A DNA stretch of 64,000 nucleotides from assembly GCA_934747775.1 (NCBI GenBank), contig CAKVHA010000002.1, forward strand, positions 70,361 to 134,360, read 5' to 3'. The notes beneath the pieces are model-generated. The model saw only the letters and a program-made list of their open reading frames with translations. It did no database searches and had not been told where the DNA came from. Positions 2,767 to 55,407 of the stretch are shown here, piece after piece (position 1 is the stretch's first letter; every line of letters begins with the position of its first letter). The translations under genes and the position numbers were made by a program. This stretch comes from an uncultured Clostridia bacterium (GTDB lineage: Bacteria > Bacillota > Clostridia > Christensenellales > UBA1242).

Positions 2767-2826
2767 TTGTGAAATGTGCTGGTGTTAAAAATTAAAGCGG
2801 CTTTATTTATACTAAAACCAACTGAG

Positions 2827-2854
2827 TTGATATAATACACAAATTTGCTATACT
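2827..2854 (+). promoter_or_regulatory. orphan sigma-A-type promoter
   Basis: TTGATA (2827-2832), 16-nt spacer, TATACT (2849-2854). No ORF follows; only the GC-rich element does. Confidence 0.6.
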
Positions 2855-2858
2855 TACT

Positions 2859-2990
2859 GGACTACCCCACCACCGCAAAGCGGTCCCCCGCCCGCAAACA
2901 CTCACCCCAAGTAACCTGGTTTCTTCGGGGACCCCGAGCAAGGGGCGGACAAAACAAAACCAGCCTAAAGAAAAACTTTGGCTGTTTTTA
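2859..2990 (+). ncRNA. candidate ~130-nt C-rich structured sRNA (element copy A), unclassified
   Basis: Sits between the orphan promoter and a hairpin plus T-run (CAGCCtAAAG-aaaaa-CTTTGGCTG-TTTTT, 2961-2990). Strongly GC/C-rich in an AT-rich genome. Hairpins at 2872-2884 and 2905-2930. No ORF. Related copies lie at 10477-10527, 28511-28592 (-) and 28688-28745 (+). Confidence 0.55.
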
Positions 2991-9276: not shown

Positions 9277-9427
9277 CCTAATTCACTTATCTCCTTAAAA
9301 TTTTTATTTAAGTTTTTATATTTTACAATAAATTTAAAGTTTTAGCAACACTTAGATTATAAAAGTTGACATGTTTTTTTGTATTTTATATAATACGATA
9401 TGTACATTACTATATAGGAGATTTTTT

Positions 9428-10300
9428 ATGGCAATTAAAATAGCATGTGACAGTTCTGCCGATCTTGGCAAAGAATTTTATGAAAAACACAATGTTAGTG
9501 TTATGCCCTACATTATTGTTTTGGGCGACAAAAATTATTTAGATGGCGAAACCATTAGCGTAGAAGATATTTACGATTATGTTGCTAAAACCAAGCAATT
9601 ACCAAAAACCGCAGCTTTAAACGAGTATATGTTTAGAGAATTTTTTGAAAAAAATTACAGCGAAGACGGGTTGATTTATTTTAATCTTAGCAGCAAAATG
9701 TCGTCTACTTTTGAAAATGCAACCGCAGCAAGCAAACATTTTGAAAAGGTACACGTTGTAGATAGTCTTTCACTTTCTACTGGCAATGGAATGCTTGTTA
9801 GATACGCGTGTCAACTTGCCGAAAGTGGACATTCTTATGAAGAGATTATAGAAAAAGTTGAAGCCCGCAAAAAATATGTTCAAGCAAGTTTTATTTTGGA
9901 TAGGTTGGACTTTTTACACAAAGGCGGAAGATGCAGTTCCCTACAGCTTCTTGGAGCAAACCTACTAAGGCTTCACCCTTCCATTCAAGTTAACAGTGAC
10001 GGAAAAATGGTTATGAACAAAAAATATCGCGGAAAGCTTTTTGACATTGTACACAAATACATTGATGACACATTACAAGAATACAACAATCCTGACCTTA
10101 GTTTTTGTTTTATTACTCACACTGCACAAACTGATCAAGTGGTTATTGATAGTGCAATTGCTACCGCTAAGGCGCACGGATTTAAGGAAGTTTTTGAAAC
10201 CACTGCTAGTGCAACTATTAGTTGTCACTGCGGCAAAAACACTATTGGTATTCTTTACTTCAACGACGGCGGTGCTGGTCGCACGACTGTATCAGACTAG
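9428..10300 (+). CDS. DegV family fatty-acid-binding protein
   Basis: MAIKIACDSSADL... and the C-terminal ...SCHCGKNTIGILYF are typical of DegV. AGGAG RBS before ATG 9428; TTGACA-17-TATAAT promoter at 9366-9394. The last ~10 codons lie inside a repeat element. Confidence 0.85.
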   Translation: MAIKIACDSSADLGKEFYEKHNVSVMPYIIVLGDKNYLDGETISVEDIYDYVAKTKQLPKTAALNEYMFREFFEKNYSEDGLIYFNLSSKMSSTFENATAASKHFEKVHVVDSLSLSTGNGMLVRYACQLAESGHSYEEIIEKVEARKKYVQASFILDRLDFLHKGGRCSSLQLLGANLLRLHPSIQVNSDGKMVMNKKYRGKLFDIVHKYIDDTLQEYNNPDLSFCFITHTAQTDQVVIDSAIATAKAHGFKEVFETTASATISCHCGKNTIGILYFNDGGAGRTTVSD

Positions 10301-10399
10301 TGCTGTTATTATACTTACTCCATCTGTTTAAAGAGTGAGCTTATATAAACCACAGATAGTTTAAGGTGCTGGTCGCATTGACCGTATCAAGCTAGTGCT
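10271..10399 (+). repeat. two ~35-nt direct repeats, 94-nt period
   Basis: GGTGCTGGTCGCACGACTGTATCAGACTAGTGCT (10271-10304) versus GGTGCTGGTCGCATTGACCGTATCAAGCTAGTGCT (10365-10399). The first copy overlaps the degV stop. Confidence 0.8.
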
Positions 10400-10476
10400 A
10401 TAGTAATACACACTCTTTCTGTTTTTGGGTCACTTGGCGTGACAGCCAGTATTTAAATAAATCCTTAAACCTTGTG

Positions 10477-10572
10477 TCACCCCAAGAAACTATGTTTCTT
10501 CGGAGACCCCGAGCTGTGCGGACAAAAAAAAGATACAATCATAAGTTCTATATATCTAACTACCCTTTGGTA
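10477..10572 (+). repeat. fragments of the GC-rich element family
   Basis: 10477-10527 TCACCCCAAGAAACTATGTTTCTTCGGAGACCCCGAGCTGTGCGGACAAAA aligns with 2902-2954 (about 42 of 53 positions by hand count). 10559-10572 ACTACCCTTTGGTA is an exact 14-nt match to copy C (reverse complement of 28566-28579). Confidence 0.7.
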
Positions 10573-10671
10573 ATTACGACAAACAAAAAAAAGATTAAAT
10601 TTTTCAATTTAATCTTTTTTTATTTTAAAATATGCAAATCGTTTACTAAAAACCATAATAAATTAAGCGGT

Positions 10672-28369: not shown

Positions 28370-28398
28370 ATTTTACCAAAAAATGGGCTAAATGTCAA
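28370..28398 (-). promoter_or_regulatory. promoter of the coiled-coil gene
   Basis: Minus strand: TTGACA (28393-28398) - 17 nt (TTTAGCCCATTTTTTGG) - TAAAAT (28370-28375). Confidence 0.7.
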
Positions 28399-28510
28399 AT
28401 TTGATAACATATTGGTTTAGCACTCTTTCCCCCACAAACTCTCACCGATAAAATAAGCAAATACCTTTATGGTGGAAGTTTTTTAAATGTGATACGCTTC
28501 TAACATATTA

Positions 28511-28592
28511 GACTAATCCCACAAGCCTTGTGTCCACTTGTAAGGGGAAGGTGGTAGCCAACGGCTACCAAAGGGTAGTCCAGTAAGTATAC
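28511..28592 (-). repeat. GC-rich element copy C (minus orientation)
   Basis: The minus strand reads AAATTTCGTATACTTACTGGACTACCC, against copy A AAATTTGCTATACTTACTGGACTACCC (2841-2867). This is followed by hairpin GGTAGCC-gtt-GGCTACC (28553-28569) and CCACCTTCCCCTTACAAGTGGAC. Confidence 0.75.
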
Positions 28593-28687
28593 GAAATTTG
28601 TTTATTATGTTGTGTTTGTTGTCTTAGCGCAAATTAAACCGCAGAAGTACTGCAATGAATATAACCAACAAAACTGGTAAATAAGCC

Positions 28688-28745
28688 GGACTACCCCACC
28701 ACCAGTCGTTCGACTGGTCCCCCGCCCGCTTACAAGGGACGGATA
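28688..28745 (+). repeat. GC-rich element copy B (plus orientation)
   Basis: GGACTACCCCACCACC (28688-28703, identical to 2859-2874), hairpin ACCAGTCG-tt-CGACTGGT (28701-28718), GGTCCCCCGCCCGC (28716-28729, identical to 2882-2895), then TTACAAGGGACGG. Confidence 0.8.
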
Positions 28746-28801
28746 AATTTCAAATAACAGTTTTATTTCTTTCAAGGTGACACAGGCAGTATAAGGATAA
28801 T

Positions 28802-28836
28802 AAAAAAACACCTTGGATTATTTTCAAGGTGTTTTA
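28802..28836. terminator. intrinsic terminator downstream of dnaB (bidirectional shape)
   Basis: AAAAAAA-CACCTTG-gattatttt-CAAGGTG-TTTTA; on the minus strand the stem is followed by T7. Confidence 0.85.
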
Positions 28837-28848
28837 ATAAAATCCATA

Positions 28849-30312
28849 TTAAAAAATATCGTCTACAATGTCACTTTCTTCTAGCGGAACAATATCTGGT
28901 AAGTTTTCGTCTGGTGGAGTAACTTTATTAAACTCTGGTGGTTCGGTACCTTCTAGGCTTTGAGAGTTTGCATCTTTTTCCAAATTAACAAAAGTTGTAG
29001 TTTCGCCAATCCACTTAACCTTAACTGTGCCTTGTGGACCATTACGGTGTTTTGCTACGATAATTTCGGCGATATTTTGACCAGCAATTTCTTTAGGACA
29101 ATCTTTGTACATATCTGGACGATACACAAAAATAACAATATCGGCATCTTGCTCTATTGCGCCCGACTCTCTAAGGTCGCTAAGCATTGGGCGGTGGTCG
29201 GTACGCGACTCTACGCCACGACTTAACTGCGATAGCAAAATAATAGGCACATCAAGTTCTTTTGCAGCAATTTTTAGGTTACGCGACATACTACTAACTT
29301 CTTGTTGACGGCTTTCTGGAGTTTTGCTGTTGCCACTCATAAGTTGAAGATAGTCAATCATAACAAGGTCTAGCCCGTGTTCACGTTTTAGCTTGCGGCA
29401 CTTACTTAAAATCTGCATTGGAGTTGTAAGTGAGTTATCGTCGGCATAGATGCTGGCGTTGGCAAGTTTTTCTTTAGCGCTCCAAAGCGCTTTCCAATCT
29501 TTAACCGAAAGTTCGCCTTTTAGTGCGCGCTCCATACTAACATACGCAACACTGCAAAGGCTACGTTGTGCTAGCTGGCTTTTAGGCATTTCTAGCGAGA
29601 AAATTGCGCATTTTTTACGACCGTTTACTGCTGCGTAGTTTACAATATTCATAGCAAGTGATGTTTTACCACTACCTGGACGTCCTGCCACCAAAATAAG
29701 GTCACTATTTTGCAAGCCGTTTGTAATTTTATCTAGCCCATAAATACCTGTGGATATTCCGCGAAGGCTGGTTTTGTCTTTTTGAATTGTTTCAAATTTA
29801 TCCATAACGCCGTCTAGCGAGTCGTTTAACGGAGTAAGTTCGCCGTGGTCGTCTTCACGCCCAATATCGAAAATGTTTTTTTCCGCCATTGCAATTGCAT
29901 CGGCTTTTTCGTGACCTTCGTATGCGTAATTAATTATGTCGTTAGAGCGGTTTATAAGCTTTCTTAGCACGCTATCGCGTTTTACAATATCTATGTAGTG
30001 TTTGTAGTTGCTAGCACTTGGAACAATGTTGGTTAGGGTTGTTATGTATTCTAGCCCGCCAACAGATTCTAATAAATCCGATTTTTCTAGTTCGTCGGTT
30101 AGTGTAACTAGGTCTACTGGGCTGTTACGCTTATACACTTCGTACATTGCGTTAAAAATAATCTTATGCGCTTCCACATAAAAGTCGTCGCCATTTAGTG
30201 CGCTTATTATATTAAAGCCAGCATCTTGGTCTATTAACACACAACCTAACACGCTTTGCTCGCCTTCTATACTGTTGGGCATTCTACGCCCTTCTACCTT
30301 AGTGCTTTTCAT
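28849..30312 (-). CDS. dnaB: replicative DNA helicase
   Basis: N-terminal PNSIEGEQSVLGCVL, Walker A GRPGSGKTS, IDYLQLM and the RecA-fold motifs of DnaB. Confidence 0.95.
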   Translation of the reverse strand: MKSTKVEGRRMPNSIEGEQSVLGCVLIDQDAGFNIISALNGDDFYVEAHKIIFNAMYEVYKRNSPVDLVTLTDELEKSDLLESVGGLEYITTLTNIVPSASNYKHYIDIVKRDSVLRKLINRSNDIINYAYEGHEKADAIAMAEKNIFDIGREDDHGELTPLNDSLDGVMDKFETIQKDKTSLRGISTGIYGLDKITNGLQNSDLILVAGRPGSGKTSLAMNIVNYAAVNGRKKCAIFSLEMPKSQLAQRSLCSVAYVSMERALKGELSVKDWKALWSAKEKLANASIYADDNSLTTPMQILSKCRKLKREHGLDLVMIDYLQLMSGNSKTPESRQQEVSSMSRNLKIAAKELDVPIILLSQLSRGVESRTDHRPMLSDLRESGAIEQDADIVIFVYRPDMYKDCPKEIAGQNIAEIIVAKHRNGPQGTVKVKWIGETTTFVNLEKDANSQSLEGTEPPEFNKVTPPDENLPDIVPLEESDIVDDIF

Positions 30313-50262: not shown

Positions 50263-50350
50263 GCAGAGTTGGCTGAGCGGTCGAAAGCGGCGGTCTTGAA
50301 AACCGTTGAAGTGAGAGCTTCCTGGGGTTCGAATCCCTAACTCTGCGCCA
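50263..50350 (+). tRNA. tRNA-Ser (anticodon UGA), type II with long variable arm
   Basis: GCAGAGT/ACTCTGC acceptor, anticodon loop CTTGAAA, long variable arm, GGTTCGAATCC T-loop, GCCA end, and a hairpin plus T-run terminator right after. Confidence 0.9.
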
Positions 50351-55240: not shown

Positions 55241-55407
55241 AAAAAAATCCCATCGTTCCCGATAGGATAAATATTTTAATTCTGTTCCCATCGGTCAGCC
55301 TTTAGCACCTTGGCAATGTCGCTAGGTTGCTGTGTGGTCAACGGGGCTGTCCCTCGCACACTCTTTATGGATAATTAAATATTAACTTAAAAAATTTGGT
55401 TTGTCAA
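55241..55407 (-). promoter_or_regulatory. SAM-I (S-box) riboswitch with promoter and terminator
   Basis: Minus strand: TTGACA (55402-55407) - 17 nt - TAATAT. Aptamer core ...AAAGAGtgtgcGAGGGAcaGCCCCgttGAccacaCAGCAACC...AAGGTGCTAAaggCTG...AGAA. Terminator ATCCtATCG-ggaa-CGATgGGAT-TTTTTTT (55268-55241). Confidence 0.85.

Follow-up and report, generated by a model that had tools for sequence, protein, structure and literature searches.

Why would a bacterial repeat hold on to the sequence on either side of a hairpin, keep the hairpin paired, and let the sequence of the hairpin itself go? The question is raised by three stem-loop elements, copies A, B and C, in a 64,000-nt stretch (the window) of contig CAKVHA010000002.1 from an uncultured Clostridia bacterium, whose genome (GCA_934747775.1; here G000) comprises 1.10 Mb in 16 contigs, with 34% G+C and 95.5% completeness. 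All three copies are members of one repeat family, F1, of which a genome-wide nhmmer profile finds about 24 copies (E-values to 4e-40), so their resemblance is not due to chance. Most likely, F1 is a repeat like the REPINs (inverted dimers of repetitive extragenic palindromic, REP, sequences) that is tied to a small nuclease gene of the DUF559 family, because F1 copies bracket such a gene in G000, because gene and repeat co-occur in one of the 41 genomes of the genus, and because brackets of the same build stand in other Clostridia. Positions are given in window coordinates unless preceded by C1 to C14, which denote contigs of G000.

F1 is linked to DUF559 both physically and phyletically. The sole PF04480 (DUF559) gene of the genome, C4:92626-92973, encodes a 115-aa protein that spans the full-length domain (103 bits), carries a D...ExD...H motif and has as its nearest solved structure the 'endonuclease-like protein' 3HRL. 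We take DUF559 to have a Vsr-like PD-(D/E)xK nuclease fold, and to our knowledge it is a very large protein family without an assigned function; the titles and abstract openings of papers mentioning it make no link to repeats. On one side, 58 nt from the gene, lies the core of a minus-strand F1 copy of type 1 and on the other, at 21 nt, a plus-strand copy of type 2 (both types are described below), so that two outward-facing copies (C4:92568 and C4:92994), each within about 100 nt of the open reading frame (ORF), bracket it. Four or five head-to-head F1 pairs, B and C among them, are about 106 nt apart; the pair that holds the DUF559 gene in its gap is 426 nt apart instead, and the spacer between C and B is the position equivalent to the place of the gene. 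About 22 copies in G000 are gene-less. The phyletic pattern is an unusually clean natural experiment, in which 1 of 41 species has the nuclease gene and the same one alone has F1, in its roughly 24 copies; neither PF04480 nor F1, the latter sought with a covariance model (R1), was found in any of the 40 sister species.

The same package of gene and repeat recurs in other genomes. Units of the same build lie within about 300 nt of the gene in seven of seven contexts of DUF559 homologues (75-53% protein identity), and in three of these both sides are inverted. Homologues at 75% identity, on three contigs that each end just past the gene, are preceded by an inverted type-1-like unit and followed by a type-2-like one, and the hairpins are new. 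At 65%, in a different organism, CCCTTTGGT-hairpin-ACCACCTTCCCC-TAAA-GGGTGACAC stands on both sides of the gene with two different hairpins. Among homologues at 60-53%, from higher-GC organisms, the adjoining units read GACCTC(W)TCC-hairpin-(A/C)(C/G)CTTCCCC-loop-GGGGAAG(G/C) and are placed on both sides in inverted orientation (locus L102), on both sides in direct orientation (L098) or on one side (L104, L105). A second covariance model, R2, was built from 19 DUF559-adjacent units of seven organisms. Of 29 DUF559 loci in further genomes of the order it matches 24, while the 31 control loci yield no match. Six R2-scanned loci have the full bracket, with a minus unit on the left, a plus unit on the right and the 5' blocks facing the ORF at 10-110 nt; the bracket layout of G000 is also present at L093, L095, L102, L112, L114, L119, L120, L125 and L126. 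In 400 kb of the complete genome G154 there are three units; two adjoin the gene at 17 and 20 nt, and these have identical flanks but not the same hairpin. In G176 all 11 R2 matches fall within 20-kb intervals that carry the gene, with none in 340 kb elsewhere. No R2 match was found in 400 kb of G040, a genome without DUF559. Within the order the gene is patchy (46 of 301 genomes, 28 of 147 genera, one to six copies) and often lies less than 1 kb from a contig end. In one lineage (L105/L106, protein P0073) the DUF559 ORF and the start of mutS share 8 nt, and three hairpin units still stand upstream of the ORF, which hints at a link to mismatch repair.

The bracket points to an undescribed enzyme-plus-repeat partnership resembling that of REP sequences and RAYT (REP-associated tyrosine transposase), and we lean towards placing F1, as a lineage-specific branch, in a widespread class of intergenic DNA repeats that fold and that belong with a small DUF559 nuclease gene. 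The complete form would be a nuclease gene between two outward-facing units with their 5' blocks gene-proximal, each unit running from a pyrimidine block through a variable hairpin, a second pyrimidine block and a short loop to a purine block. Head-to-head pairs without the gene, such as B and C, and single units, such as A, would be derivatives, as REPINs and REPs are for RAYT. The two fixed blocks would be the sequence-specific parts, read by a protein for which the DUF559 nuclease is the obvious candidate, and the hairpin may act as a compact connector only, keeping the blocks side by side in a folded single strand or an extruded form; a mere connector would account for pairing that is kept while sequence and length are free. 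The DUF559 protein may bind or cut the folded unit and thereby spread or maintain F1. The reading also yields a concrete rule of structure, by which two fixed blocks combine with any hairpin.

The F1 units themselves are modular (Table 1). Type 1, to which copies A and B belong, consists of GGACTACCC-CACC, a hairpin of the form ACC...GGT, CCCCCGCCCGC, TTACAAG and GGGGCGGA; type 2, exemplified by copy C, consists of GGACTACCC-TTT, a hairpin of the form GGT...ACC, ACCTTCCCC, TTACAAG and GGGGACAC. A module of about 50 nt with its own variable hairpin substitutes for TTACAAG in five copies, copy A included; the module of copy A recurs in four others having different main hairpins, and the same main hairpin is found with different 3' modules, so that the modules are nested, mosaic and recombined. 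Pairwise identity between copies is 94-96% in the hairpin-flanking blocks as against 40-63% in the upstream region and 53% in the tail, from which it follows that the copies are old and the blocks constrained in sequence. A sequence-only reading of the window had given copies A (2859-2895) and B (28688-28729) identical flanks and different stems, and both sequences are borne out. Its sequence for copy C, GGACTACCCTTT-GGTAGCC-GTT-GGCTACC-ACCTTCCCC, is correct as well, but its coordinates are not: the copy starts at 28581 rather than 28582 and the string ends at 28544, the earlier end at 28540 taking in an extra TTAC.

Table 1. F1 copies, associated repeats and neighbouring terminators. Positions refer to the window unless a contig of G000 is named.
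Feature	Position	Strand	Sequence and remarks
Copy A, upstream region	2797-2858	+	GCGGCTTTATTTATACT ... TGATATAAT ... ACAAATTT ... TACT; conserved among copies; promoter-like
Copy A, 5' block (type 1)	2859-2871	+	GGACTACCCCACC
Copy A, variable hairpin	2872-2884	+	ACCGC-AAA-GCGGT; -6.0 kcal/mol, z -3.1
Copy A, 3' block	2885-2895	+	CCCCCGCCCGC
Copy A, ~50-nt module replacing TTACAAG	2896-2950	+	AAACACTCACCCC, own variable hairpin, GGGGACCCCGAGCA, then AGGGGCGGAC pairing back to CCGCCC
Intrinsic terminator, common to a convergent 353-aa gene	2961-2990		CAGCC-N14-GGCTG + T run
Mosaic of both repeat families, mixed orientation	10270-10580		second-family units (minus strand), inverted 3' module, copy-A-like module, truncated F1
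Truncated F1 copy in mosaic	10557		TAACTACCCTTTGGTAATTACGAC
Copy C (type 2)	28530-28581	-	GGACTACCC TTT / GGTAGCC-GTT-GGCTACC (28569-28553; -12.5 kcal/mol, z -4.8) / ACCTTCCCC / TTACAAG / TGGACAC
Spacer of head-to-head pair C/B, 106 nt	28582-28687		contains upstream regions of both copies
Copy B (type 1)	28688-28744	+	GGACTACCCCACC / ACCAGTCG-TT-CGACTGGT (28701-28718; -10.3 kcal/mol, z -3.5) / CCCCCGCCCGC / TTACAAG / GGGACGGA
Intrinsic terminator 3' of copy B, common to convergent dnaB	28809-28836
Second-family array	10270-10400	-
Second-family array	C1:62290-62450		upstream of gyrB
Second-family array	C4:93080-93290
Second-family array	C1:2306
Second-family array	C1:58297
Second-family array	C1:172004

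Constraint acts on the sequence of the flanking blocks but only on the pairing of the hairpin. The slot between the blocks is taken by at least nine variants of the hairpin, differing in sequence or length: GGTAGCC-KTT-GGCTACC, GGTGTGCG-N9-CGCACACC, GGTAATTGC-AAC-GCAATTACC and GGTAC-TAG-CAGACC-NNN-GGTCTG-ACTGC-GTACC (a frame also found with CAACAC/GTGTTG) are among them, as are the type-1 stems of copies A and B in Table 1. The F1 hairpin sequences were not found anywhere else in G000. Most variants fold with z = -4.5 to -5, none of 200 shuffles folding as well; the commonest type-2 variant is weaker (z about -1.6 to -2.1) and keeps its basal 6 bp alone. In a MAFFT alignment made without structural reference the basal helix is paired in all 14 type-2 copies, and RNAalifold independently finds the same helix. 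Two of its pairs covary with none unpaired (AU in 10 copies and GC in 4 at one; CG in 7, UA in 3, GC in 2 and UG in 1 at the other), and the covariation score of 0.224 compares with 0.141 for shuffles, of which 0 of 500 reach 0.224, and with 0.03-0.10 for slid controls; since only about nine hairpin variants are independent, independent covariation events are few. Recent changes within hairpin subtypes fall on 9 of 33 unpaired as against 5 of 88 paired positions (Fisher p=0.002).

The sequence-only reading is supported in its central claim, that the stem-loop is conserved as a structure and not as a sequence within a repeated element. Two of its expressions went too far. 'Fully paired' does not hold for all F1 copies, given two type-1 copies with a C.A or C.U mismatch in the hairpin and the weak type-2 variant. 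That the structure is selected agrees with the preserved pairing, but selection is not the sole route, as hairpin-templated repair yields the same pattern. The mismatches, about three of G.U type and three or four of C.A type, show no strand bias and so do not discriminate between the two strands, or between RNA and DNA, as the folded form. Strand-specific wobble was set aside as evidence for RNA, G.U and C.A being about equal. Several further readings of the unit were rejected. A closing helix between the 5' leader (AUUUCGUGU) and a 3' ACACRRRRU is 72.7% paired with weak covariation and hence was not adopted; pairing of GGACU with a downstream AGUCU is inconsistent among copies; and a coding role is contradicted by hairpin lengths that differ by non-multiples of 3 and by the lack of start codons.

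Could the nuclease gene be a passenger? In the main rival to a DUF559 partnership, host processes such as recombination, replication slippage or gene conversion spread and maintain the repeats, intrastrand template switching during replication corrects imperfect palindromes, so that the hairpins stay paired without being used, and DUF559 is cargo that lands, or is preferentially kept, beside them. The mosaic modules, with the same hairpin next to different 3' modules and the same 50-nt insert next to four different hairpins, are what such processes would leave, and mismatches without strand bias and the lack of target-site duplications apart from one 35-nt flanking repeat fit them too; BoxC/TMECO loci are likewise regions of genomic variability without a known mobile partner (PMC4666352). 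We nevertheless consider a passenger unlikely. It leaves unaccounted for a precise and oriented bracket, with the 5' blocks ORF-proximal at 10-110 nt in many unrelated genomes, and the co-occurrence of gene and repeat in one genome out of 41, and the fact that G154 and G176 have almost no units at a distance from the gene is hard to square with landing in pre-existing repeats. Template switching, for its part, does not explain blocks that stay nearly identical beside neighbours that have drifted.

Several observations do weigh against tying F1 to the nuclease. Given the divergence of the F1 copies there is no sign of recent transposition, and at B/C single-nucleotide polymorphisms (SNPs) are all that separates the strains; a flanking direct repeat (35 nt) accompanies one F1 locus only. 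Units in G154 and G176 have hardly spread past the gene, which makes proliferation as in G000 the exception, and the nuclease could be a passenger that inserts beside such repeats. Because R2 was derived from DUF559-adjacent units, it may miss unrelated solo families. The nuclease is a putative one, not known to be active, to have a cut site or to leave target duplications. The purine block is degenerate in G000 (GTGGACAC, GGGTGACA), so that a triplex is doubtful there, and about half of the copies have a plausible sigma-A promoter and a terminator, which fits an RNA product equally well.

Comparison with REP sequences was the right instinct of the sequence-only reading, as was the search for an associated nuclease. 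F1 goes with the DUF559 nuclease; the nuclease proposed there, a RAYT or Y1 transposase, is not the one. REP families combine an invariant tag with alternative complementary stems, occur as inverted dimers and bracket a nuclease gene of their own (PMC3733652). In F1, likewise, a single-copy nuclease gene stands between inverted folded repeats that also lie dispersed without the gene, singly or as inverted dimers; sub-families have alternative complementary stems next to an unpaired tag that does not vary; and the sites fall between convergent or tandem genes (PMC3733652, PMC3337134 for REP/REPIN-RAYT). Is F1 then a classical REP/REPIN family mobilised by a RAYT, a Y1 HUH transposase? REP traits (PMC3733652) recur in the inverted dimers about 100 nt apart and in the alternative stems, and the G-rich strand has an invariant GTAG (GGGTAGTCC), though at a distance of 5 nt from the stem. 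PF01797, however, is absent from the 95.5%-complete G000 (0 matches, with 6 of 14 control genomes positive), the conserved F1 unit exceeds 110 nt as against 20-40 bp, and the gene between the inverted copies is DUF559, not RAYT. Membership is thereby refuted, and its probability negligible, unless the 4-5% of G000 missing from the assembly carries a RAYT gene. Beyond this, the enzyme of F1 is PD-(D/E)xK Vsr-like and unrelated to the HUH Y1 transposase, the unit is longer and has two fixed blocks in place of a 4-nt tag (GTAG or CGTC), and copy numbers are low.

An RNA product would recast the units as genes for small, C-rich structured RNAs (sRNAs) that act in trans through two single-stranded blocks, on G-rich ribosome-binding sites or on a protein, with the hairpin as a spacer and the DUF559 link secondary. 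The single-stranded blocks are 39% C and 9% G (C/G ratio 4.2), and they contain CCACCUU, which resembles an anti-Shine-Dalgarno sequence. An upstream alignment predicts a TTTACA-like -35 and a TATAAT-like -10 element ending at -23 (before GGACT) in 11 of 22 copies, and for copy A a promoter scan predicts TTGATA-16-TGnTATACT with its end at 2854; intrinsic terminators follow 100-210 nt downstream in about half of the copies. Moreover, 13 of 22 copies are directed toward the 3' end of a convergent gene, so any transcript must originate in the unit. We judge such sRNAs rather improbable, somewhat more so than a passenger gene. The promoters are poor in many copies, and the terminators are those of convergent neighbour genes and usually bidirectional. 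Rfam has no family for F1, as searches of the whole window at the gathering threshold and of 28380-28860 at E<=10 returned nothing beyond tRNAs, a single SAM riboswitch and noise. A search for targets of extended complementarity found none, conserved-block 10-mers occurring at chance level. Set beside LhrC- or RsaE-like multicopy sRNAs, F1 has predicted promoter-like and terminator-like sites in about half of its copies but no conserved seed with complementary targets. Absence from all 40 sister species would be unusual for a regulator, and elsewhere units of the same build lie tight against a nuclease ORF in inverted pairs, which is the layout of a DNA element. Two related candidates were discarded: a CsrA decoy, suggested by the likeness of UUACAAGGGGA to a CsrA site, in a genome with no csrA gene and only a 17-bit match inside a 697-aa ORF; and an invertible promoter between head-to-head copies, where inversion would alter nothing.

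The same C-rich composition invites yet another role for a transcribed unit. In the tR1 terminator of phage lambda the sequence of boxB is dispensable provided that its folding is kept. The units could be portable Rho-loading (rut-like) sites, two C-rich tracts joined by a hairpin clamp as in the rutA-boxB-rutB layout of tR1 (PMC4344519), that stop read-through between convergent genes. Their C/G ratio, their frequent position between convergent genes and the presence of a rho gene in G000 are in keeping with this. But the upstream gene is divergent in at least eight copies, so that no transcript enters the unit in the C-rich sense, and neither the DUF559 bracket nor the absence of F1 from sister species, which also need termination, is explained; we regard Rho loading as very improbable. 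The rho gene itself (C6:63347-64474) directly adjoins the 3' end of a gene for 4835 aa, and giant presumed surface-protein genes (0.9-4.9 thousand aa) adjoin F1 copies on C1, C6, C10, C13 and C14.

If F1 belongs with DUF559, to which known repeats does it come closest in build? The BoxC/PIT/TMECO repeats, intrastrand-triplex repeats of E. coli and other bacteria, number 23 copies in K-12, are intergenic and mark variable loci; their consensus, CCCTCNCCC N3-6 GGGNGAGGG N3 GGGNGAGGG, reads Y-loop-R-loop-R on the strand opposite to the C-rich one (PMC4666352). F1 resembles them in being intergenic, GC-rich and present in a few dozen copies per genome, in having pyrimidine, pyrimidine and purine blocks in the same order on the C-rich strand, and in having loops less conserved than blocks and loci that vary between strains. 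The F1 fixed blocks, GGACTACCCTTT and ACCACCTTCCCC, differ from the TMECO consensus, which F1 does not match, and where those repeats have a 3-nt loop between two blocks, every F1 copy and the Clostridial relatives have a free-sequence hairpin of 13-33 nt, well beyond the short loops (1-6 nt) of the class. As for the triplex blocks, the relatives show GACCTCTTCC ... ACCTTCCCC-GAA-GGGGAAGG, for which 7 of 8 triplets are possible by eye, whereas in G000 the third block is degenerate and a CCCC/GGGG helix of 4-5 bp is left. Published work links the BoxC/PIT/TMECO repeats to no mobile element or protein (PMC4666352). The DUF559 gene of E. coli, ycjD, ends inside a partial BoxC unit, which contains its stop codon, and a full TMECO follows some 180 nt further downstream. 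A perfect hairpin of 16-18 bp (NC_000913.3:1351760-1351830, L157) contains the start of the gene, and one arm of this hairpin, CACCTCATTC, is nearly the 5' block (ACACCTCATC, GACCTCATCC) of the Clostridial DUF559-bracketing units.

A broader proposal, which we hold only tentatively and regard as doubtful, is that DUF559 proteins are the cognate enzymes of a large folded-repeat class, made up of BoxC/PIT-type units and hairpin-bearing Clostridial variants. They would read the two blocks, which any compact hairpin could keep together, and then nick the unit or copy it. DUF559 and its repeats would thus form a second nuclease-repeat partnership of bacteria, independent of RAYT/REPIN. G000, alone in its genus in having the gene and home to 24 repeat copies, would represent the stage just after acquisition and expansion. 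Every round of processing would remake or correct the hairpin of a unit, and this would account for the replacement of whole cassettes between identical flanks. For more than 30 years BoxC/PIT repeats have been known without a function or a partner protein, and the package, present in G000, at ycjD of E. coli and in dozens of further Clostridia, gives both the repeats and DUF559 a testable role.

Two other kinds of mobile element share some of these features. Modular repeats such as the Correia elements of Neisseria, BOX and RUP of pneumococcus, and ERIC resemble miniature inverted-repeat transposable elements, and F1 has in common with them a modular build, optional inserts at a fixed site, outward promoter-like sequences, inverted ends and species-restricted expansion. 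It differs in having no recognisable DDE-type transposase partner or regular target-site duplication and in placing a variable hairpin between invariant blocks. Homing endonucleases of the Vsr-like 'EDxHD' kind, I-Bth0305I for example, cut an empty allele and are encoded within introns or inteins or as free-standing genes of phages. They too are small Vsr-fold nucleases in the form of selfish mobile genes, but they are not bracketed by hairpin repeats that are also found gene-less.

How far does F1 itself extend, and how stable are its sites? The exact F1 pattern was found in none of 60 relatives, and model R1 returned only noise from the four closest species even at E<=10. Exact-pattern scans of genome, metagenome and viral collections gave only chance matches in coding DNA, F1 was not found in phage and plasmid collections, and, since these exact-pattern scans demanded ACTACCC, they missed the relatives found later. 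The sister species G008 has an exact 17-nt match to the F1 core and leader, CACTGGACTACCCTTTG (C4:102891-102966 of its own assembly, locus L061), which lacks the hairpin and the 3' block, is apparently intragenic and could be chance or a remnant.

F1 insertion sites are variable between species. Other strains of the same species retain the B/C pair and differ by a few SNPs, while the junction between dnaB and ORF80, about 540 nt long and holding B and C in G000, is about 20 nt in the sister species G021. Upstream of the conserved gyrB promoter, G000 has F1 and units of a second repeat family, G008 has second-family units, and G021, G030 and G033 have none. Around the head-to-head pair on C6, a terminator is directly duplicated over about 55 nt, 35 nt of them exact (C6:80853-80905 and C6:81339-81391); no other F1 locus is flanked by a long direct repeat, or candidate target-site duplication. 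No protein paralogues of at least 80% identity were found in G000, and in a genome that thus lacks a multicopy protein gene there is no obvious insertion sequence.

The second repeat family, which is related to F1 and adjoins some of its copies, consists of tandem units of about 62 nt, GAYAYAGTC-GTGC-GACCA-GCAC-CC..GAAC, whose stems swap around a constant loop (GTGC/GCAC, AGCAC/GTGCT, GTCAC/GTGAC). A leader, ACTGCAGTAAATATAAC, is common to its arrays and some F1 copies. The three closest species have related arrays too: G008 carries them after dnaB and before gyrB, G021 has them as the 5' untranslated region of dnaE, and they are present in G030 as well. A CRISPR-like reading of the 62-nt arrays was rejected, the 'spacers' being homologous between loci. 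In the window, the 3' end of a 309-aa ORF (9371-10300) extends into a second-family unit. The window also holds a SAM-I (S-adenosylmethionine) riboswitch (55247-55373, minus strand) and four tRNA genes for Glu, Met, Met and Ser (2269-2730, 50263-50350), all ordinary. On C6, three small paralogous membrane proteins are encoded between F1 copies (C6:79532-80747; also C4:59571-60119); one of the three matches the type IV secretion pilin family PF18895, and these paralogues near F1 are among the very few paralogue pairs in G000.

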